From assembly GCA_963747935.1 (NCBI GenBank), contig CAVVGY010000010.1, positions 131,951-195,950 on the forward strand: a stretch of DNA of 64,000 bases, given 5' to 3'. This document shows positions 11,635 to 48,343 of this stretch, one piece after another; position 1 is the stretch's first letter; each line of letters opens with the position of its first letter. The stretch comes from an uncultured Thermoleophilia bacterium. Lineage in GTDB: Bacteria; Actinomycetota; Thermoleophilia; UBA2241. Position numbers and translations under genes: made by a program. Below the pieces are notes generated by a model, which ran no database searches, was not told the DNA's origin, and saw nothing but the letters and a program-made list of their open reading frames with translations.

Positions 11635-12248
11635 TCACCCGCCGATCAGGCGGCGCGCCGTGACGGCGCCGCTCAGGCCGTCGTAACTCACGACCTTGCC
11701 GGAGCTCGGCGCCTCGATGATGCGCCCGCGCCCGGCGTACATGGCCACGTGGTAGTAGTAGCCGGAGCCGCCCCAGAACACGAGGTCACCGACCTTGAGG
11801 TGACGCAGCGAGACGCGGGCGCCGCTGCGGGCCTGGTCGGTGGCGCCGTGCGGCAGACCGCGGCCGATGTGGCGGTAGACGTACATCGTGAACCCGGAAC
11901 AGTCGAAGCCGCCGCGCGAGGCGCCGCCCCACACGTAGGGGACGCCGAGCTGCTTGCGGGCGACCCGCAACACCTCGTCGCGGAGCCGCTGCCAGCGGGC
12001 GCGCTGCCGGGCGAGACGCCGCGCACGGATGCGCGCCCGCCTCTGCGCCTTGGTCAGCCTGGGTGCGGCGGGCGTTGCCGTCGGCGGGGCGAGGGCGAGG
12101 GGTTCGGTGAGAGCGTGCCCACCGGGGACGGCGACTGAGCCGGCGACGGCGTCGCCGAAGGCTCGGCGAGGAGCGCGCCGGGGACGAGCAGGAGGGTCAG
12201 GAGGGCTGCAAGGGAGATGAGACCTCCGACCAGGCGAGTGGGGTGCAT
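11635..12248 (-). CDS. Secreted NlpC/P60 (C40) cell-wall peptidase with a signal peptide and Arg-rich coiled-coil; apparent frameshift between the signal peptide and the linker (about 12060-12160)
   Basis: C40 domain VPYVWGGASRGGFDCSGF…H. The upstream in-frame stretch RRARIRARRLARQRARWQRLRDEV is coiled-coil-like. The signal peptide MHPTRLVGGLISLAALLTLLLVPGALLA starts at 12248 but lies in another frame. Confidence 0.65.
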
Positions 12249-12426
12249 ACGTGTGCCTCCTTGATGGCCGGGGACAACAGACCCGGTCTCTCGGTGGGCG
12301 CCGTTATGACGCCGCGGCCGCTGGTCGGCCGTGTCCGCCCATCGGGGGCGGAAGAGGCAGGGTAGGGGCGCCGGAAGGCCGCGGTCAACCCGAAGAAGGT
12401 CGTGTTACCTGGGTGCTTGTACGGGA

Positions 12427-12524
12427 GATCGGAGCCCCATGCGGCGCCGCAACAGGCCCAGATCGGGCTCCCGATGGGGCTCCGGATGAGGCTCCGGATT
12501 GGGCTCCGACCCCCGAGACGACAG
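12427..12524. repeat. Repeat family B copy 1 (terminal core GGGCTCCGACCCCCGAGACGAC)
   Basis: Shares the GGCTCCGGAT units and the GGGCTCCGACCCCCG end with copies at about 14769 and 45240. Confidence 0.55.
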
Positions 12525-12816
12525 ACCTCCGGCCGTCCGGCCCGGCGCCCCTCGAGCGGCCCCGCAGACCCATCCTGATGCTTGCGTGTACAAGCAGTGG
12601 AGGCGCTCGCGGGTTGCGCCATCCGGTGACTTCGGGTTCACTGGAACACGAATCTACGACACGCGGCGCCCGCGGCGCCCTGCCCCCTCTGCAGATTCGT
12701 CTCCCTTTTCCCTGATGACGGTGACGCCGTGCGGTGGCATGCCGCGGCCCGCAGACAGCCTGCGCGGCACAGGCGATCGCCACTGCCGCGCAGGACATCA
12801 CGTGGGAAGGACACTG

Positions 12817-13575
12817 TGCGTCTCAGGACCCTCACCATCGGTATCACCCTCATCGTCCTCGCCTCCGGCCTGCTCGCTGCGCCGGCGTTCGCGAAGGACC
12901 CCTCCGTCTCGACCCTCCGGCAGCGCCTGCAGCACGCTCGCGCCATGAGCCGGCGCGCTCACGATCGCCTGCTCACGGCGACCGCCGACCTGGCCGGCGC
13001 GCGCGAACTCCACGCGGCCACCAGCGCCTTGGGGACCACCCCCGATCCGGGCGCGACCCCCGACCCTGCTGCGACCACTGCCGCCGCTACCCCGGCGATC
13101 CCTCGCGACCATGGATCAGACCCTCGCCGCGACCCTGCTGGCGGACGGCGTCGTCACGGCCGACGAGGTCGCGGCGCTCCAGGTGCGCCTCAACGCCGCG
13201 AAGCGCGTGGCGCACCGCTGGGACGTCAAGGTCGAGCAGTTGAAGAAGCAACTCCGCCAGCTGAAGCAGATCGCCGAGTGGAACCGGCGCGGCCAGTGGA
13301 AGCCGCTCATCGCCATCGCGAGCCAGCGGTACCACGTCAGCGCGGCCGGGCTCACGCACATGATGACGCTCGAGTCGAACGGCCAGCGGCACGTCGACAG
13401 CGGCCCGTACCACGGCCTGTTCCAGTTCATGTACCGCGAGTGGGCGATGAGCTGGAACGAGTGGCGCGACCACAGCATCTACGACGGCTGGTCCCAGATC
13501 CAGCTCGCCGCCAAGTGCATCAGCCGCGGCATGGGGCCGAGCATCTGGCCGCTCACGTACCGCATGTCGTTCTGA
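12817..13575 (+). CDS. Secreted coiled-coil protein with a C-terminal lytic-transglycosylase-like (SLT-type) domain; apparent frameshift near 13090
   Basis: GTG start after GGAAGGA; signal peptide LTIGITLIVLASGLLAAPAFA. SLT-like motif E-S-x9-S-x3-G-x2-H-G-L-F-Q (LESNGQRHVDSGPYHGLFQF) is in the 13111 frame. Confidence 0.5.
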
Positions 13576-13790: not shown

Positions 13791-14816
13791 ATGACACTCG
13801 CAGCTACCACCACCACCGACTACCAGAGACCGCGCCTCGACGTCGGCCTCGCCTTCAAGAAGGGCTGGCACGCCTTCACCTCCGACATCGTGCCGTTCCT
13901 GGTCGGCGCCCTGATCGCCGGCATCCTCTCGGTGATCACGCTCGGCATCCTGGCCGGGCCGCTCACCGCCGGGCTCTACAACATGGCGGTCCGCCGCCTG
14001 CGCGACGGCCGCCGCGCCGAGATCGGCGACGTGTTCTCCTGCTTCGACAGGTTCTGGAGCTACCTCTGGGCCGCGATCGTCCTGGTGGTCCTGATCGGAC
14101 TCGCCTCCCTGACCATCGTCGGCGGCGTGCTGCTGGCGACGATCTGGATCTACGTGTTCCCGTTCATGGTCGACCGCAGGATGGGCCTCGGCGAGGCCAT
14201 GTCCGCCAGCTACCACCGCGTCGTGGACAACGGCTTCTGGGAGCACCTGGCGCTGATCGTGGTCTTCTTCGCCGTCAGTGCGGTCGCCAACGGCTGGGTC
14301 GGGATCATCACCACCCCGTTCACCATCGCCGTGATCGTCGGCGCGTACTTCGCCACTCGCGACTACGAGCGCCAGTACGTCGCGGCGCCGGCGGGCCCCG
14401 CCACGCTGCCGCCGGCTCCTCTGGCCGCTCCCGAGCCCCCGGCGCCGATGCAGACCGCCATCGCCGAGGCGCCCGCCGCGCCGATCACTCCGGCCGCGCC
14501 GACCGCCGAGGTCGAGGAGACCGAGACCGCCGTCGAGACGACGCAGGCGACCGAGGTCGCTCCCGCGGCCGAGGCCGACGAGACGGCTGAGGCGACTGAG
14601 CCGGCCGAAGCAGCCGGAGAAGGCCGACGAGGCCGGCGAGCCGAAGGCCTGACGCCGGCACGGCCGGAGGTCACGGCCACAGAAGCCGGACGGGCCCGGC
14701 GGAGGCACTGCGCCTCCGCCGGGCCCGTCCGCGTATCAGGCCTCCGCGCTCATCCCGGGGAGTATGAGCGCCCCGGGGTGGGCGCCTCTTCCGGAGCCTC
14801 TTCCGGTGCCACATGA
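13791..14816 (+). CDS. Integral membrane protein with an acidic Ala/Pro/Glu-rich C-terminal tail (C-terminus uncertain; alternative stop near 14650)
   Basis: Several hydrophobic helices (LVGALIAGILSVITLGILAGPL…, LIVVFFAVSAV…). Confidence 0.45.
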   Translation: MTLAATTTTDYQRPRLDVGLAFKKGWHAFTSDIVPFLVGALIAGILSVITLGILAGPLTAGLYNMAVRRLRDGRRAEIGDVFSCFDRFWSYLWAAIVLVVLIGLASLTIVGGVLLATIWIYVFPFMVDRRMGLGEAMSASYHRVVDNGFWEHLALIVVFFAVSAVANGWVGIITTPFTIAVIVGAYFATRDYERQYVAAPAGPATLPPAPLAAPEPPAPMQTAIAEAPAAPITPAAPTAEVEETETAVETTQATEVAPAAEADETAEATEPAEAAGEGRRGRRAEGLTPARPEVTATEAGRARRRHCASAGPVRVSGLRAHPGEYERPGVGASSGASSGAT

Positions 14817-14860
14817 GGCTCCGGATCCGGCACCCGATTGGGCTCCGACCCCCGAACGAC
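14769..14860. repeat. Repeat family B copy 2
   Basis: CTCTTCCGGAGCCTCTTCCGGTGCCACATGAGGCTCCGGAT…GGGCTCCGACCCCCGAACGAC. Confidence 0.55.
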
Positions 14861-14930
14861 CCACATGCCCCCCATCCAGGCGGAACACCCAGTCCCGCCG
14901 TGCTCCCGCCGGGGGCGCGGAAGGCCGGAT

Positions 14931-15957
14931 CTAGTAGATACTGCCGCCGGCCTGCGAGGAGTACAGCACGCCACCGATGGCGGAGATGCTGTACGCCGTG
15001 CCGCCCTTGCCGGCCCACTTCGTGAGGTCGAACGTCGCGGCGCCCGAGACCCGGTACACCGAGATGCCCTCGTAGGTGAGCGGCAGGTTCTTGGCGCACA
15101 CCTGCGGCTTGCCGGTGGTACGCGTGAAGTACGCCGCGCCGTCGCCGTACAGCCGGGCCTGGCCGTTCTCGTCCACGGTCACCGTGTTGTCCTCGTCCAC
15201 GGCGATGCCCCTGGCCTGCGTCGCCCACCCGTCGTTGACGATGCGCGCGAGGAAGGTGATGTGACGGCCCATGCGGTCACGCGCCACGAAGTGGCTGTCG
15301 GTGATCACGTTGCCCAGGTACGGGAGCCGCAGGAAGTCGTTGACCAGGGTGACGTGCGAGTGGTACGGGTTCTCGAGCGCCTGGCGGGAGAGGATCGTGC
15401 CCTTCTGCGCCACGTAGGCGAACTGGCCCTGGACGGCGAGGCCGGCGCTGATGCCGCCCACCGGTTTGACCCTGGCGGCCGCGTTGATGATGTCCTCGGC
15501 CGGCGTGTCGACCATGTAGGAGTAGTACAGCCACTGGTTGCCGCCATCGACGTAGATGGCCTCAGCCTTGCTCAGCTTGTCGAGCAGGACCGGGTCGTAG
15601 CTCGCCTTGCGCGTGCCGAGGACGAAGGTCTCGACCGAGTCGACGCCGCCGAGCGTGTACAGGTACGGACGCGTAGTCGTCGACGCCGGAGGCGGCGATG
15701 ACCACGACGTCCCCGCCGCCCGCGCGGCCGAGCCACCACTGCACTGCGGCGTCCTGGTCGGTCGCCCCGCCGGCGAGGATCAGGCCCGGCTGGGTGGTCG
15801 CGACCGCGTCGGCCGGGTCTCCGGTGAGGTAGTAGGTGTAGCCGACGTCCGCGGCCTTCGCCTGCGGAGCCGCGATGCCGAGCGCCAGCAGCGCCAGGCA
15901 CGCGATGAGGGTGATGCCGAGCAGGAGCAGCCTGCCGTCACGTCTGGTGCAGTCCAT
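14931..15957 (-). CDS. Secreted peptidase S51 (cyanophycinase-like) family protein; apparent frameshift near 15655
   Basis: ATG at 15957 with signal peptide LLLLGITLIACLALLALGIAAPQAKA. G-x-S-A-G nucleophile motif (GGISAGLAV) and VDGGNQ. The N- and C-terminal halves are in different frames. Confidence 0.5.
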
Positions 15958-40557: not shown

Positions 40558-41667
40558 CTAGAAGCGGCCGCCGATCCAGGCGCCGCTGATGGAGCCGTAC
40601 TGCACCACGGTGCCGGTGTGCGGCGCGTGGATCATGCTGCCGCCGCCGACGTAGATGCCGACGTGGTGGCTGTAGCTCGCATTGCCGAAGAACACGAGGT
40701 CACCGGGCTGCAGCGCGTTCAGCGGGACGGGCTTGCTGGCGCGCTGCTGGTCGGTGGCGCCATGCGAGAGGCCGATGCCGATCTGCGCGTAGCAGTACAT
40801 GGTGAGGCCGCTGCAGTCGAAGCCGCTCGGGCTGGCGCCGCCCCACACGTAGGGCACGCCGAGGTAGCGCTGGGCGATGGCCACGACGGCCGAGTGGCCG
40901 GAGCCGCCCGGGTCGACGACGGTGCCGCCGCCCCCGCCGCCGCCGGAACTCGACGACGAGCTGGAACCGCCGGAAGAGGAGGAGCCGGAGGAGGACGAGT
41001 TGTCCGCCACGGCGGCGGCTCTGGCGGCCTCCGCCTTGGCCTTGGCGGCCGCGGCGGCCTTGGCCTCCAGGTCCGCGATCTCACTCTTGAGCCCACCCGC
41101 GGTGCCCTCGAGCTGGGCCTGGAGCGAGAGCACCTGCTCCTTGCTCTTCTCGCGCTCGGCGACCAGCTTGGCCGCGGACTTGCGGTCGGCCTCCAGCGCG
41201 ATGCGCCGGTCGTCGATCTCCTGGCGGTACACGTCCGCGACGCGCGCGGTCCTGGCGTCGTTCTCCGTCATGCGCTGCATCACGTCGAGCTGGGTGAGCA
41301 GGTCGTCGAAGGTGCGGGAAGCGAAGATCACGTCGAGGATGCCGGCGCTGTCGGCCTTGTAGACCTGCTTGGCGCGCGCCGTGAGGTGGTCGTTGGCCAC
41401 CTCGAGCTTGTACTCGGCCACCTTGAGCAGGTGACTGGTGCGTACCGATGCGGTCCTGCACATCCTTGAGCCGCGAGGCGGCCGCGTTGTAGCGCTCCAC
41501 GGCCATGTCGGACTGCTCGTAGACCTTGCTGAGCTGCGCCTGCACGGCCGCCAGCCTGGCCTTCTTCGCGGCGATGGGTCCCGCCGACGCGACGGCGGAG
41601 CAGACGAGGAGCAGCGTGAGCGCTATGAGTACGGCGAACGTCGCCTTGCGGATGGGGGTCAAGCGGA
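40558..41667 (-). CDS. RipA-like secreted NlpC/P60 peptidase with a long coiled-coil and a Ser/Gly linker; apparent 1-nt indel near 41445
   Basis: TTG start after GAAGGAGG; signal peptide FAVLIALTLLLVCSAVASA; coiled-coil. C40 domain VPYVWGGASPSGFDCSGL…H. The N-terminal segment (41463..41667) is in another frame. Confidence 0.65.
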
Positions 41668-42828: not shown

Positions 42829-42847
42829 CCACCCTGCGGCACGCTGT

Positions 42848-43420
42848 CTACTGCTGCAGCCGCTCCACGATCGTCCTGGCGACCTCTTCCAGCTGGGCGT
42901 CGCTGAGCTGCGGCTTCTCCCACAGGAACCCGGTGCTGATCAGGTAGGCGTTGTCGCCGACCTTCACGGCGATGCCCTTCTGCATGTCGGTCCAGTCCCA
43001 CCAGAACGCGTCGTCGCCGAGCCCTGCGATGGTCTGCGGCGCCATGTTCGACGCCTGCCGCTGTTCCTCGAACATCCCGGCGTTCCCTACGCGGATCCAG
43101 AGCGCCTCAGGCGACTTCTCGCTCTGGTAAATGGCGAAGTACTTCGAGGTGCCCTCGCGCTGATGCCAATCCGACTCGGGCATCGGCGTCGCGTCCTTGA
43201 TGCCGGTGATGGCGCGCACGTCGTCCTGCGTGAGCAGGGCGGCGTAGTCCACCGCGGCGGCCGGCGACGCTGCCGCCGCCCCGCCGTCCCCGCCCGACCC
43301 GTCGCCCCCCGACCCCGAGGACGTGGCGGCCTCTCCCGAGCCACCGCAGGCGGCGAGCGCGAGCACCGCCCAGGCGGCCACGATCAGCATCGCCGCCAGG
43401 CCCCTTCGGCCCCTGCGCAT
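42848..43420 (-). CDS. Lipoprotein of unknown function
   Basis: Internal ATG; signal peptide plus lipobox LALAACGGS followed by a Gly/Ser-rich linker. Confidence 0.45.
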   Translation of the reverse strand: MRRGRRGLAAMLIVAAWAVLALAACGGSGEAATSSGSGGDGSGGDGGAAAASPAAAVDYAALLTQDDVRAITGIKDATPMPESDWHQREGTSKYFAIYQSEKSPEALWIRVGNAGMFEEQRQASNMAPQTIAGLGDDAFWWDWTDMQKGIAVKVGDNAYLISTGFLWEKPQLSDAQLEEVARTIVERLQQ

Positions 43421-43603
43421 CCTGGTCGACGATCCTTCCGAGCACAGCATGGCGTCCCCCTCTCCCAAGCTCCCCGGTCGGACGCCAAACGTGCACGGCG
43501 TCACAAGTCCATGAAACTGACGCAGGCGGCGCGTCGTCAAGCGTTAGGGACGCGCCCAGCAGACTCTCATGCGACTCTCAGGAAGAGCGGCTACGATGCC
43601 CCC

Positions 43604-45148
43604 ATGACGACCTCCGCCCGCACATCCACCTGCGCCGCCGAACCCTCAGCCGCCTCTGCGGAACCCCTCGCCGCCGCTGCCGGACTTTCAGCCGGCCGGT
43701 CACGACCCTGGTCCAAGGGCGGGATCCGGGCGATCTCGAGGACCGCCTGGATCGAGATCGCCGTCGCCCTCATCTGCTTCGCCGTGCTGTGCGGCGCGGC
43801 GCTCACGCGCACGGTCACGCTGCTCGAGCCGGATGACTACGCCTATCGCGCCTCCATCGTGGCGCTCACCGAGGGCCACGTGATCCTCAGCGACGCGCAG
43901 TACCAGGACCTCGCGGAGCGCCTGCAGCAGCAGGACTCCGCGAGCGGGCTCAGCGGCAGCCGGGGGATCGCGCAGTGGACGCAACTTGACGACGGGAACT
44001 GGGTGAGCGAGAAGAACCCCGGCTACCCGTTCCTGGTCGCGCCGTTCGCGCTCGTTGGGCTGGAGCGGCTGGCGCCGCTGTTCTACGGCGGCCTCGGCTG
44101 CGTCGCGCTGTTCTTCGGCGGACGGCGCTGGCTGGGCGCCTGGGGCGGCACGTTCGCCGTCGGATTGTTCTGCTCGTCGGGCGCGGCGCTCGCGTTCGCG
44201 TGGCGCGCCTGGATGCCCACCTTCACCGGCGCCGCGCTCATCGCGGCCGGCGCCGGCGCCCTGCTCTGGGCGTTGCTCGCCGTCGACCGGCGGCCGCGGC
44301 TGCGGACGGCCGTCGGCCTGCTCGGGTTCCTCGCCCTCGAGGGCGCGATGCTCGTCCGCTACACGGACGCGATCGCGCTCGCCGTCGCCGCTGTGGCCGT
44401 GCTGGCCGTGTGGCGCTTCGTCCCCGGCCGGCTGCCCAAACGGGCGCTGATCTGGTGGCTCGGCTCGGCCGTGCTCGCCGGCGGGCTGGTGCTCGGCTGG
44501 GACGCGCTGGTCTACGGTTCAGTGACGGCGACCGGCTACGCGAGCGGCGTCATCACCTTCGGGCTCGGAGCGATCGGCGGCAACCTGGACCACATGCCCC
44601 TGCTGCTGGTGCAGACCATGCCGGCGTGCCTGCTCGCCCTCGCCGGCCTCGTCTGGCTGGTCGGGCGCAGCGTCTGGCTGCGGCGCACGGCGCCCGAGGA
44701 CGAAGTGCGCCCCTCCCGCGCCGCTGCCCACCGCGACCTCGCGGTCGCCGCGGCGCTCACCGCCGTCTGGTGGGGCACGTGGGCGCTCTACTTCACCTAC
44801 TACTGGACGGCGCAGATGAGCACCGGGCCGGGCGGCGCCGGCGGGCCCGGCGGCGGCGGGGCCGGCCCTGCCGGCGCGGACAACGCCATCCACCTCATCA
44901 GGTTCTTCGTCCCCGCGCTGGCGCCGATCGCCCTGCTGGGCGCCTGGGCGCTGGTGCGCGTGCCGCGCTGGGCAGCGCTCGCCGCCGTGGCCGGCTTCTT
45001 CGGCCTCGGGTTCTGGTCCTACGCGGACATGGCCTCTGCCGACCCTCGCGGAGGCATCATGGGCGGAATGCCCGGCGCGCCCGGCGGCACCCCACCCACC
45101 GGCATGCCGGTCCCGCAGGGGATGCCGACGCCGCCCGCTATGCAGTAG
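43604..45148 (+). CDS. Polytopic membrane protein (possible GT39/ArnT-like glycosyltransferase fold) with a Gly/Pro-rich C-terminus
   Basis: ATG at 43604. At least 10 predicted transmembrane helices and a DDYAYRASIVAL loop near the N-terminus. Confidence 0.4.
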   Translation: MTTSARTSTCAAEPSAASAEPLAAAAGLSAGRSRPWSKGGIRAISRTAWIEIAVALICFAVLCGAALTRTVTLLEPDDYAYRASIVALTEGHVILSDAQYQDLAERLQQQDSASGLSGSRGIAQWTQLDDGNWVSEKNPGYPFLVAPFALVGLERLAPLFYGGLGCVALFFGGRRWLGAWGGTFAVGLFCSSGAALAFAWRAWMPTFTGAALIAAGAGALLWALLAVDRRPRLRTAVGLLGFLALEGAMLVRYTDAIALAVAAVAVLAVWRFVPGRLPKRALIWWLGSAVLAGGLVLGWDALVYGSVTATGYASGVITFGLGAIGGNLDHMPLLLVQTMPACLLALAGLVWLVGRSVWLRRTAPEDEVRPSRAAAHRDLAVAAALTAVWWGTWALYFTYYWTAQMSTGPGGAGGPGGGGAGPAGADNAIHLIRFFVPALAPIALLGAWALVRVPRWAALAAVAGFFGLGFWSYADMASADPRGGIMGGMPGAPGGTPPTGMPVPQGMPTPPAMQ

Positions 45149-45239
45149 ACAGACGCCGCCGGCGGCGCTGGAAACCGGCGTGCGCCCCGGCCCTCTGTGG
45201 CTGGGGCAGGACCAGGAGGCGCAGGGGTGTATGCCGTCC

Positions 45240-45435
45240 GGGGGTCGGAGCCTTATCCGGAGCCTCTTGCGGCACCCCATGCGGTGCCACTTCCGGAGCC
45301 CCTTGTGGCACTCTATCCGGAGGCTTGTCCGGTGCCTCTTGTGGCACCACATGCGGCGCCACTTCCGGAGCCTCTTGCGACACCACATCCGGCGCCGCAG
45401 AGGGCTCCGGTTCGGGCTCCGACCCCCGGACACAC
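45240..45435. repeat. Repeat family B copy 3: MITE-like element with terminal inverted repeats (GGGGGTCGGAGCC … GGCTCCGACCCCC) and five internal tandem repeats of about 30 bp
   Basis: Internal unit CTTCCGGAGCCTCTTGYGGCACCMCATGCGGYGCCA repeated. The ends are reverse complements of each other. Confidence 0.65.
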
Positions 45436-45542
45436 ACCACCCCGCGGGCCGAGCGGCGCCAACGTCACCCAGGCGCGAGGGAGCAGGCGCCGGACAGCGT
45501 CACCCCAGCGCGCGAGGGAGCCGGCGGCGGACCGCTACGGCC

Positions 45543-46655
45543 TCAGGCGCAGCGCACCACGCCGCGCGCCCAGAGGCAGTCGCCGCAGGTGGGGTGCGGG
45601 TTGCCGAGACAGTCCTCTTCGTTGGTCTCGGCCAGTTCGCACCCGCAGTCGGTGCAGGGCGGGAAGTCGAAGCGCCGGACCCGGTCGCGGAACGCGACGT
45701 ACTCCGGCCCGGCCCAGACGGCGGCCAGAGACTCGGCCGGGAGCCTGCCCACCTCCCAGCGCACGATGCGCTTCTCGCGCCCGCGCACGTAGCAGGTGTA
45801 CGTGTGCAGCAGGGGCGGGCACGGGCTCACGCCGCCGTGCCAGGCCACCGCGCAGGCGTCCGCGTGCACGAACGGGCAGCGGGCGCGCGTGTCCTCCGGG
45901 TCGGCGCCGTGGAACGAGACCGGACCCGAGCGGGTCAGCGCCTTGCCCAGCGAGGCTCCGAGCTCCTCGTCCCAGTCGAACGCCGGCAGCTGCCAGCGGG
46001 CGCCGGCGGTGGTGTGGGCGCCGCTGGACGTGGACCCCTGGCGGTCGTAGAGCGTCTGGTCGAGCAGGTCCTCGGTGTAGGCGAGCACGTTGCTGACGAT
46101 GATGAACGTCGCGCCCAGTTGCGCGGCGAGCCGGCGCAGGCCGGGCAGCTCGCCGATGTTGGAGCGCATCGCCACGAACTCGACCCCGATGCGCACCGCG
46201 GAGCTGTAGTTGGGTCCGCGGTGGTCGTGCAGGCGGCGCACGTTCTCCACCACACGGGCCAGTGAGGCGCCGGAACGGACGCGGCCGAAGGCCTCGGCGG
46301 AGGCGCCGTCGATGCTCACGACGAGCTGGTCGAGCCCCGCCTCGAGCAGCGCTGCCGCCATCGCGTCGTCCAGCAGCAGCGCGTTGGTCGTGACCTCGGT
46401 CCGCAGCCCGCGCTCCTTGGCGAGCCGCACCATGTCCGGGAACCTGGGGTGCAGCAGCGGCTCCCCCAGCCCCATGAACGCGACCGTGCCGGGCCCGCCT
46501 TCGTCCGCCGGCCCGGCCACTCCGGCCACCACGGCCTCGAACGTCGCCCACTCCATGAAGCCCTCGGGCTCGTCCCACGCGTGGCGGATGCAGGTGGCGC
46601 AGGCGAGGTTGCAGGCGTTCGTCGGCTCGACGTAGACCTTGGCCGGCGCGGTCAC
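45543..46655 (-). CDS. Radical SAM enzyme with a C-terminal Cys-rich SPASM/twitch-like auxiliary-cluster domain
   Basis: CNLACATC (CxxxCxxC) at residues 15-22. The C-terminal cysteines are CPFVHADACAVAWHGGVSPC…CYVRG…CTDCGC…CGDCLWARGVVRC. Last gene of the arsP operon. Confidence 0.8.
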   Translation of the reverse strand: MTAPAKVYVEPTNACNLACATCIRHAWDEPEGFMEWATFEAVVAGVAGPADEGGPGTVAFMGLGEPLLHPRFPDMVRLAKERGLRTEVTTNALLLDDAMAAALLEAGLDQLVVSIDGASAEAFGRVRSGASLARVVENVRRLHDHRGPNYSSAVRIGVEFVAMRSNIGELPGLRRLAAQLGATFIIVSNVLAYTEDLLDQTLYDRQGSTSSGAHTTAGARWQLPAFDWDEELGASLGKALTRSGPVSFHGADPEDTRARCPFVHADACAVAWHGGVSPCPPLLHTYTCYVRGREKRIVRWEVGRLPAESLAAVWAGPEYVAFRDRVRRFDFPPCTDCGCELAETNEEDCLGNPHPTCGDCLWARGVVRCA

Positions 46656-47461
46656 AGGCCCATACCTGCGCAGATCGCGAGAAGCGCTTCGCGGAGGTCC
46701 TCACGGCCTCCCCCGAAGACCGGCGCGCAGTCTTGTGGATCCGCGTCACCGCGCCAGACGGCCCAGGCGAAAGCGTTGCAGGTCGCCTCGCCGCACTCCC
46801 CGCAGTTGCTGCCCGGCAGCCGCTTGAGGATCTCGAGCGCCGGCGGCCGCCGGCGCGCCTCGAACGAGGGCTCGATCTGCTCACGCCGCGCCCAGACCTC
46901 GTTCACCTGGCTGCGCAGCCGCTCGAGGCTGGCCCAGGCGTCGACGATGTCGTCGGCCTTGGCGATGCCCACCCTGTCGCGGAACAGCGACACCATCCGG
47001 TGGCCGTCCATGTAGGTGAGCACGGGGAGCTTGGCGGTGTACGACGCCTGGTGCAGCTCGGCGTTCAGATAGGGGAGCGCCTCGGCCGCGTCCCCCTCGA
47101 GGTGGGCGATGAGCCGCAGCTTCTCGGGGTCTGCCACGCAGGGCGCAAGGACGACGATGGCCATGCCGGGGATGAGCTCTTCCGGCGCGGGGATGAGCCC
47201 GTCCGCCGCGGAGGCGGGCGACTGCTCCGGCACGCTCCGCCGGGATGGTCTGTGCTCCACCCAGCCCGCGCCGACGAGCCCCGCGCCGCCGTTGTCCAGA
47301 TACTCGGCGCGCGCCTCCGCCGTCAGGACGAGGGCCGGGCACCCGACGCGCTCGTAGCCGGGGTCTGGAGAGACGACTTCGTACCCGATGCCGAGGCGGT
47401 CGAGAAGCTGCTGCGCCTTGGCCAGCTCACGCCGGTCCGTGAATGTCGTCAGCCAGTCCAC
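46652..47461 (-). CDS. Two-domain protein: N-terminal DUF3343-like domain (putative S/Se-carrier-like) plus a C-terminal CFeSP-type Fe-S cluster domain (LPGSNCGECGEATCNAFA)
   Basis: N-terminus FTDRRELAKAQQLLDRLGIGYEVVSPDPGYERVGCPALVL; C-terminus …RLPGSNCGECGEATCNAFAWAV…. Confidence 0.45.
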   Translation of the reverse strand: MDWLTTFTDRRELAKAQQLLDRLGIGYEVVSPDPGYERVGCPALVLTAEARAEYLDNGGAGLVGAGWVEHRPSRRSVPEQSPASAADGLIPAPEELIPGMAIVVLAPCVADPEKLRLIAHLEGDAAEALPYLNAELHQASYTAKLPVLTYMDGHRMVSLFRDRVGIAKADDIVDAWASLERLRSQVNEVWARREQIEPSFEARRRPPALEILKRLPGSNCGECGEATCNAFAWAVWRGDADPQDCAPVFGGGREDLREALLAICAGMGL

Positions 47462-47464
47462 GGC

Positions 47465-47701
47465 TCAGCTCGACGCCTGCGCCCTCATCCGGCGATAGTC
47501 CTCGAGCGACGGGAAGCTGATCGCCCCCTTCTCACAGAGGCCGGCGCAGTGCGAGCAGCCGGCGATGCAGGCGTCCTGGTGGACCACCTCGACCCTGTCG
47601 CCGGAGAAGCCGTACACGCCTTGCTGGCAGAACTCGAGGCAGGTGCGACAGCCGTCGCACAGCTCACTCTCGATCGTCGGGCCCCACACGAGCGTGCTCA
47701 T
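47465..47701 (-). CDS. Small 4Fe-4S dicluster ferredoxin-like protein
   Basis: 78 aa; CDGCRTCLEFC and CIAGCSHCAGLC. Confidence 0.6.
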   Translation of the reverse strand: MSTLVWGPTIESELCDGCRTCLEFCQQGVYGFSGDRVEVVHQDACIAGCSHCAGLCEKGAISFPSLEDYRRMRAQASS

Positions 47702-47716
47702 CGGAATCCCCCTCCT

Positions 47717-48343
47717 CTAGCAGCAGCAGGCGCCTGCCGCCGGGCGCTTGTTGGCGAAGTAGCGCGCCAGGTTCTCGGGCAACTCGACGAGCGGCTCCGG
47801 AGTGACGGGCGGCCGCTCGTCGACCTTGAGCAGCGCGTCCATGAGCGCCTCGACGAGAAGCGGTAGCGGCGCGGCGCTGTAGACCTCGCCCCGGTAGTGC
47901 CACTCGCGGCAGTCGACGCTCACGTCGCCGTCGGTCAGGTCGCCGCAAGACTCGCACTCGGACTCACGGATGTCCTGGTCGATGTCACGGCCGTTGACGC
48001 GGATGGTGGGCGAGGAGAGCAGCGCGCGCGCCTTGGCCTCGTCCGCGCTCTGGACGACCGTCTCGCGGTACGTGAGGCCGACGTCGAGAGCCTCGGCCGC
48101 CGCGGCGACGATCTCGATGGCCTCACGCAACTGCTCGCCGGTGGGCACGCAGCGCGCGCACGTGTCGAGGTCGATGACGAGCAACTCGATGTTGAGCCGC
48201 CGCCTCTGCGCGCTCGTACGCGCGGAGGGGGCGGCCGCGGCCTCAGCCGCGGGGGCGCCGCAGCAGCACGGCGAGGCGGAGGCGGACTGGTCGCCGCAGC
48301 AGGAGGACGCTGCGGGGCCGGAGGTCGTCGGGGCGTCAGTCAT
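47717..48343 (-). CDS. DUF2703-like thioredoxin-fold protein with Cys-cluster termini (N-terminal SSCCGDQSASASPCCCG, C-terminal AGACCC); candidate metalloid-binding protein
   Basis: Core LNIELLVIDLDTCARCVPTGEQL. There are 10 Cys in vicinal pairs or triplets at the two termini. Confidence 0.45.
   Translation of the reverse strand: MTDAPTTSGPAASSCCGDQSASASPCCCGAPAAEAAAAPSARTSAQRRRLNIELLVIDLDTCARCVPTGEQLREAIEIVAAAAEALDVGLTYRETVVQSADEAKARALLSSPTIRVNGRDIDQDIRESECESCGDLTDGDVSVDCREWHYRGEVYSAAPLPLLVEALMDALLKVDERPPVTPEPLVELPENLARYFANKRPAAGACCC

Follow-up and report, generated by a model that had tools for sequence, protein, structure and literature searches.

What kind of sequence recurs three times between the genes of this stretch, and how did it come to be there? 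The window (the whole 64,000 nt of uncultured Thermoleophilia DNA that was analysed) had been described in a sequence-only reading as holding three homologous copies, at 12427, 14769 and 45240, of a MITE-like, non-autonomous mobile element with 13-nt termini and 30-bp internal tandem units. Our own reading, which we hold to be rather likely, is that these sequences are three copies of one small, non-coding, palindromic interspersed repeat family of a Thermoleophilia clade, which spread as non-autonomous mobile DNA. The copies are called A, B and C in the order of their coordinates, and core-to-core lengths are measured from GGGGTCGGAGCC to GGCTCCGACCCC.

45224-45443, strand not applicable: copy C, full element; left arm 45224-45252 (GGGGTGTATGCCGTCCGGGGGTCGGAGCC, type 1), right arm 45415-45443 (GGCTCCGACCCCCGGACACACACCACCCC, type 2)
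45253-45414: internal array of copy C, ∼ 13 units of 12 nt (6-nt spacer plus GGNNCC)
14757-14873: copy B, of the minimal size class, 78 nt core to core (14775-14852)
12411-12530: copy A, degenerate, left core GAGATCGGAGCC, 89 nt core to core

The three copies are homologous, as had been proposed. The motif GGCTCCGACCCCC matches the window four times (12502+, 14841+, 45240- and 45415+) against 0.65 expected, a number reached by none of 100 shuffles; it forms the right end of copies A and B and stands inverted at both ends of copy C. A profile of the arms, built from related elements, detects exactly six arms in the window, those of the three elements, and phased GG[ACT][AGT]CC (GGHDCC) arrays are found at the three element sites only (0.02 expected). 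The copies are mutually ∼ 75-83% alike. Their anatomy had to be redrawn. The terminal inverted repeats of copy C are real (45236-45286 and 45381-45431, 51 nt, 80% complementary), but the arms measure ∼ 30 nt rather than 13; the 13-mer originally taken as the terminus falls short by ∼ 17-18 nt, and the full elements have the extents listed above. The 30-bp unit was not recovered. Tandem Repeats Finder reports periods of 36 (3.9 copies) and 72 (2.1 copies) at 45246-45396 and a period of 12 in parts of copies A and B, and the basic unit is 12 nt. Copy C has 15 phased hexamer units when these are counted core to core. In copy B the left arm is type 2-like and the right arm type 1-like. The GC content of the elements (69-72%) is close to that of the window and genome (71%).

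All three copies are intergenic, as claimed, and non-coding, with element sizes of 117-220 nt. Copy C is flanked by a plus-strand gene that ends at 45148 and a minus-strand radical SAM gene that ends at 45543. Copy B follows the end of the 13791 gene and is ∼ 58 nt away from the stop codon of the minus-strand gene on its other side (14931-15515). Copy A lies between two divergent genes, NlpC/P60 (11635-11973, minus strand) and 13111-13575 (plus strand); since homologs of the latter have ∼ 243 aa, its start is probably further upstream.

Both strands have open reading frames that run through the copies, and the repeat period is a multiple of 3, so the family could in principle encode protein, either as a proline-rich ORF (RGSEP...APTPG) or, for copy C, as a RiPP precursor of the radical SAM/SPASM gene ∼ 100 nt away, downstream of which it lies. 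The composition of these frames argues otherwise. GC3 is 0.56-0.74 in the RGSEP frames vs 0.92-0.98 in the neighbouring real genes, and the sole frame with high GC3 is Arg/His/Trp/Cys-rich nonsense that runs antisense into the next gene. That both strands yield the peptide is due solely to the palindromic DNA; the shared RGSEP translations, once cited as confirmation of homology, are thus an automatic product of the nucleotide palindrome and add no evidence. Moreover, a related contig (L001) has the matching operon and no such ORF, and copies A and B have unrelated neighbours. We find a coding role hardly credible. The radical SAM/SPASM protein itself is 76-91% identical to proteins from Thermoleophilia metagenome-assembled genomes (MAGs), and an exact-protein look-up of the window gene product returned no record.

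The architecture of the family was derived from 18 elements, comprising the window copies, members from five MAGs and two further members (L122 and L128). Each consists of arm 1, n units of 12 nt and arm 2. The arms are imperfect inverted repeats of ∼ 30 nt, of which 13-17 nt are perfect, with the consensus G-run, GTATGT, a variable stretch of 6-8 nt and a near-invariant block, GGGGGTCGGAGCC. From this block they run ∼ 17-18 nt outward to the terminal G-run, with GGGGRGGTATGT as the consensus plus a short variable stretch. Two arm types, in a classification drawn up after inspection of the data, differ just before the block (...ATGTCGTCYG in type 1, ...ATGYGYGTYCG in type 2). One arm of each type is present in 14 of the 18 elements, and because the two variants differ the element can be oriented. 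Each inner unit opens with a variable spacer of 6 nt, richer in A/T, and closes with a self-complementary hexamer, GG[C/T/A][G/A/T]CC. Across 83 internal units, GG occupies positions 7-8 in 98-99% and CC positions 11-12 in 95-96%, while G is absent from position 9 and C from position 10, and the spacers are variable. The length of the elements is quantised accordingly: core to core, 15 of the 18 measure 78, 90, 102, 138 or 186 nt, i.e. 78+12n, and the other three 77, 89 and 124 nt. It is this regular 12-nt phased design that distinguishes the family.

A search for further copies, made in species-representative genomes with GGCNCCNNNNNNGGCTCCGACCCCCG, located unlinked members in five or more related Thermoleophilia MAGs. 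They lie on at least five contigs of MFD00032.bin.2.227 (L058, L060, L076, L094 and L111), on at least three of MFD01721.bin.1.253 and on at least two each of MFD10097.bin.2.18, MFD03899.bin.2.132 and MFD02416.bin.2.102. Among the matches listed, most were chance occurrences in coding sequence (Ala/Pro-rich repeats, GSDPR motifs). Two more members, L122 and L128, came from metagenome contigs searched with both 12-mers. Subfamilies can be recognized: L076 and L111, which are different contigs of one MAG, share subfamily-specific inner sequence, and L076, L111 and L122 all start with ...GGAGCCTTATCCGG and finish with GGAAGAGGCTCCGACCCC, a start that copy C has as well. No matches to the family were found in phage and plasmid collections or in viral contigs.

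Comparison of orthologous sites shows that both the presence of the element and its length change between related genomes. Contig L058, syntenic with window 42839-46641 (83-87% nucleotide identity), has an ortholog of copy C that measures 90 vs 186 nt. It thus has eight units fewer in an intergenic region that is otherwise well aligned, which supports the variable internal repeat number claimed for the element. In L001, a more distant locus, the two matching convergent genes (radical SAM, 83% nucleotide identity) are separated by 127 nt with no element at the site of copy C. In L136, likewise more distant, the preceding hairpin and the next gene are kept and copy B is absent. Copy A has been remodelled in five contigs that are 94-97% identical (L130-L134); its right half is changed and ∼ 60 nt shorter. 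One of these, L132 (94% identical), ends just before copy B, at window 14726, as would be expected if the repeat breaks short-read assemblies. The L130 contig ends at window 14576, ∼ 180 nt upstream of copy B.

The proposal of a non-autonomous mobile element has therefore held in part: the family is non-coding and dispersed, has subfamilies and shows occupied and empty sites, but membership among the MITEs in the strict sense is not supported, since neither a target-site duplication nor an autonomous partner was found. Flanking direct repeats, with the best one taken for each element, average 2.33 nt vs 2.15 nt in mismatched-flank controls, in which the left flank of one element was paired with the right flank of another, so that no consistent duplication emerges. 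Half of the elements (9/18) have no flanking direct repeat at all, and there is a single 9-bp case (L094). The element boundaries are ambiguous, as they fall within G/C runs. The window and 136 loci (∼ 1 Mb) contained no autonomous partner, no longer element with matching arms and no solo or distant arm pairs. A duplication-free mechanism, as proposed for REPINs, fits these data equally well. Nor is there a sign of recent movement, given that the copies are only ∼ 75-83% alike and that copy C was in place before the L058 lineage split off. The family is probably mobile, now or formerly.

We suggest the following course of events. The element would have reached many intergenic sites as non-autonomous mobile DNA, with the invariant block of the arms as the probable recognition site of a putative trans-acting factor, such as a transposase or a hairpin-acting nuclease. 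After insertion, the inner array may gain or lose 12-nt units by replication slippage, which would be favoured because any two hexamers can pair. Where transcription reads through from a neighbouring gene, a long, stable hairpin would form at the 3' end of the transcript and may incidentally stop or stabilise it.

The predicted folds speak for the preferred reading. The copy C region (45230-45440) folds at -126.4 kcal/mol (z -8.6) as plus-strand RNA and at -142.7 kcal/mol (z -9.9) as minus-strand RNA, and whole elements form long hairpins with z-scores of -2.8 to -9.9. In most members the inner array alone also folds significantly, either nested or as small adjacent hairpins, because any two hexamers can pair. 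From seven aligned 78-nt members a consensus hairpin with 35 pairs was derived, 6 of which show compensatory changes. It is composed of an outer G-run/C-run helix, an internal loop, a 17-bp helix that includes the invariant block, and the hexamer helices; the internal loop falls where the arm types differ. A strand-specific RNA was considered on the basis of G:U asymmetry and rejected: 10 elements are stabler with the type 1 arm 5' and 6 with the type 2 arm 5', so that neither strand is consistently favoured.

At least 13 of the 18 elements face a gene 3' end within ∼ 300 nt, which we also count in favour of the preferred reading. An alternative is that the repeat is a cis-acting 3'-end signal of the host, a hairpin kept to end or stabilise adjacent transcripts (in both directions where genes converge), its dispersal being secondary or ancient. 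Most copies are indeed ∼ 45-300 nt from a facing stop codon, often amid convergent genes, and the folds are of high stability whichever strand is considered. In Actinobacteria, long stem loops that often lack U-rich tails are reported at the 3' ends of transcripts (PMC13613805), which makes an incidental or co-opted role of this kind plausible for the element. However, the copies lack a T-tract and a terminator scan calls none of them; neither strand is consistently stabler; copy A lies between divergent gene starts; and element-free orthologous sites exist. Copy B, furthermore, directly follows a separate and better-conserved hairpin (14676-14741), which is kept in L136 where the element is absent; in weighing this alternative we counted both L135 and L136 as keeping the hairpin with the element absent. 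Taken together, the separate hairpin at copy B, the position of copy A in a divergent promoter region and the empty sites speak against a need for the element at each site. We therefore consider a primary role as a 3'-end signal unlikely.

Two narrower transcriptional assignments were rejected. An intrinsic terminator combines a GC-rich hairpin with a T/U tract, and no terminator-like site was found at any copy. The CC dinucleotides, spaced every 12 nt over 78 nt, recall a Rho utilisation site, for which regularly spaced YC dimers, a large excess of C over G and little secondary structure are expected (PMC13613805). The C/G ratio of the elements is only 0.95-1.27 and the RNA is highly structured.

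The phasing of GGNNCC is conserved across species to a degree that exceeds the need of a decaying parasite, and selection on structure or on protein binding could account for it. One form of this idea is that the array acts as DNA, with a GGNNCC every 12 bp and the GGGGGTCGGAGCC block as putative sites for a dimeric protein, for instance a topoisomerase or a nucleoid-associated protein. In E. coli, REP arrays (BIME-2) are bound by DNA gyrase, which sets a precedent. The hexamer phasing is 95-99% conserved in five or more species despite freely varying spacers, the lengths change in steps of 12 nt, and the hexamer is identical on both strands. On the other hand, no candidate protein is known, and pairing in the hairpin together with unit duplication would explain the conservation too. 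The 2-fold change in array length at one orthologous site and the decay of copy A speak against tight functional constraint. We regard a binding array as very unlikely.

Somewhat bolder is the notion that GGGGTCGGAGCC and the phased GGNNCC are putative sites of a dedicated trans-acting protein, a widespread hairpin-processing or mobilising enzyme that would serve a REP-like superfamily across phyla. On metagenome contigs with 44-73% GC, long, unrelated hairpins are likewise bounded by the exact 12-mer pair GGGGTCGGAGCC...GGCTCCGACCCC, either by chance in so large a collection or through a shared recognition motif. Beside some of them the variants GGGGTCAGAGCC and GGGGTCGGATCC occur in nested or tandem hairpins, mostly right after gene 3' ends.

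L117-L121, L123-L127 and L129: unrelated hairpins bounded by the 12-mer pair, for example L126 7868-8023 and L125 319-438
L119 1162-1260 and L127 5126-5203: further examples of such hairpins

We think such an enzyme quite unlikely; if it were to exist, the Thermoleophilia family would be the modular form of a cross-phylum REP-like superfamily served by an unrecognised enzyme.

For the reading that we prefer, a non-autonomous mobile repeat, known systems provide several points of reference. The family is previously undescribed, and the literature, searched by sequence and by taxon, held no account of it. Its kind, the small interspersed palindromic repeat, is already known from other bacteria, and it does not represent a new type of system. 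In architecture the closest analogue appears to be the BOX element of Streptococcus pneumoniae (boxA, boxB ×n, boxC), with the REP/REPIN and MITE families as looser relatives. BOX and the present element both place two different terminal modules, inverted and complementary to each other, around a variable tandem array. boxB measures ∼ 45 nt, unlike the inner unit here with its 12 nt and self-complementary GC hexamer. Both elements are intergenic and hairpin-forming, and the inner module gives them different lengths in different genomes (PMC3049150). In our set, two distinct terminal modules are present in 14 of the 18 elements, and the variability of the inner module is seen in the 78+12n series and the 8-unit difference between orthologs. 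We treat the likeness as one of architecture only, the host phylum and base composition being different. For BOX elements, target-site duplications have been demonstrated, and their terminal repeats resemble those of ISSpn2 (PMC3049150). Neither feature was found for the Thermoleophilia element.

REP, BIME and REPIN sequences are GC-rich imperfect palindromes of intergenic regions, often at gene 3' ends, in a mosaic or array organisation and with an orientation set by a conserved stem mismatch. REPINs yield no target-site duplication, and RAYT transposases are the proposed movers. The element resembles them in its GC-rich imperfect palindrome, its orientation and the lack of duplications. However, the defining 5' GT(A/G)G is not conserved, most arms having GTATG and only L058_R and L109_L having GTAG, and arms of ∼ 30 nt around a phased 12-nt array contrast with a simple REP doublet. 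No RAYT (Y1 transposase) gene adjoins the copies whose neighbours were examined. The MIRUs of mycobacteria, also intergenic tandem units, resemble the element in that unit number differs from one related genome to another, but they are direct repeats of 40-100 bp without terminal inverted arms or a global hairpin. With bacterial MITEs (Correia, Nezha, RUP) the family has in common a small, non-coding sequence (117-220 nt, thus below ∼ 500 bp), terminal inverted repeats, strongly paired folds and many dispersed copies (three in the 64 kb of the window) with occupied and empty sites (PMC3049150); it differs in that no consistent target-site duplication was found, nor a parent insertion sequence in the window, the 136 loci and the plasmid, phage and viral sequences searched, in not being AT-rich relative to the genome and in its phased internal array.

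Other classes were rejected outright. The ends are G-runs and C-runs with GTATGT and have none of the GTT/AAC boxes (RYYYAAC...GTTRRRY) of an integron attC site. A CRISPR array would have direct repeats of 23-55 nt and unique spacers of similar length, whereas here a palindrome and a spacer of 6 nt each make up a 12-nt unit and the spacers are themselves repeated. No known RNA family applies, as Rfam gave 0 matches in the window at gathering thresholds and only generic hairpin (microRNA) matches far below threshold.

This is a first description of an interspersed repeat family in Thermoleophilia, an abundant and almost wholly uncultured soil lineage for which the literature searched held no account of such elements. 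In practice such elements are a nuisance, breaking assemblies and creating spurious ORFs, and also of use, as they mark gene 3' ends and offer a variable unit number by which strains can be typed. A self-complementary hexamer phased so strictly at 12 nt makes an unusually regular design, which may help to show how hairpin repeats expand and which factor recognises them.

Several observations concern the surroundings of the copies. The radical SAM/SPASM enzyme beside copy C is the last member of a conserved four-gene operon (window 45543-48343, minus strand), the order of which is matched on a related contig; the other proteins are one of 208 aa (DUF2703 in its related-contig counterpart), a ferredoxin-like one of 78 aa and one of 269 aa whose C-terminus has a PF04060 Fe-S domain. 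The gap from copy C to the radical SAM stop codon holds a 37-nt tandem duplication (45448-45532; CGTCACCC(C)AGCGCGCGAGGGAGC...GGAC), partly conserved in the L058 ortholog.

Directly upstream of copy B, the hairpin at 14676-14741 (CGGACGGGCCCGGCGGAGGCACTGCGCCTCCGCCGGGCCCGTCCG) is near-perfect, GC-rich and without a T-tract. Conserved at 90-91% in L135 and L136, it is probably the real 3'-end hairpin of the upstream gene. ORF 13791-14816 runs through this hairpin into copy B, and an alternative frame with typical codon usage stops at the TGA at 14650-14652. The frames diverge at an 18-nt tandem repeat (14566-14627), which suggests a frameshift or an assembly error in the repeat-rich C-terminus.

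Copy A, together with ∼ 60 nt of additional sequence, is enclosed by an inverted repeat, GCTTGTAC / GTACAAGC (12415-12422 and 12580-12595). The right member of this repeat sits in a small palindrome, GCTTGCGTGTACAAGC, and close relatives are without the sequence between the copy A array and that palindrome. The NlpC/P60 gene next to copy A (11635-11973) is paralogous to a stretch at 40579-40863, ∼ 29 kb away, a relationship that appears as secondary BLAST matches of 70-80% from related contigs.
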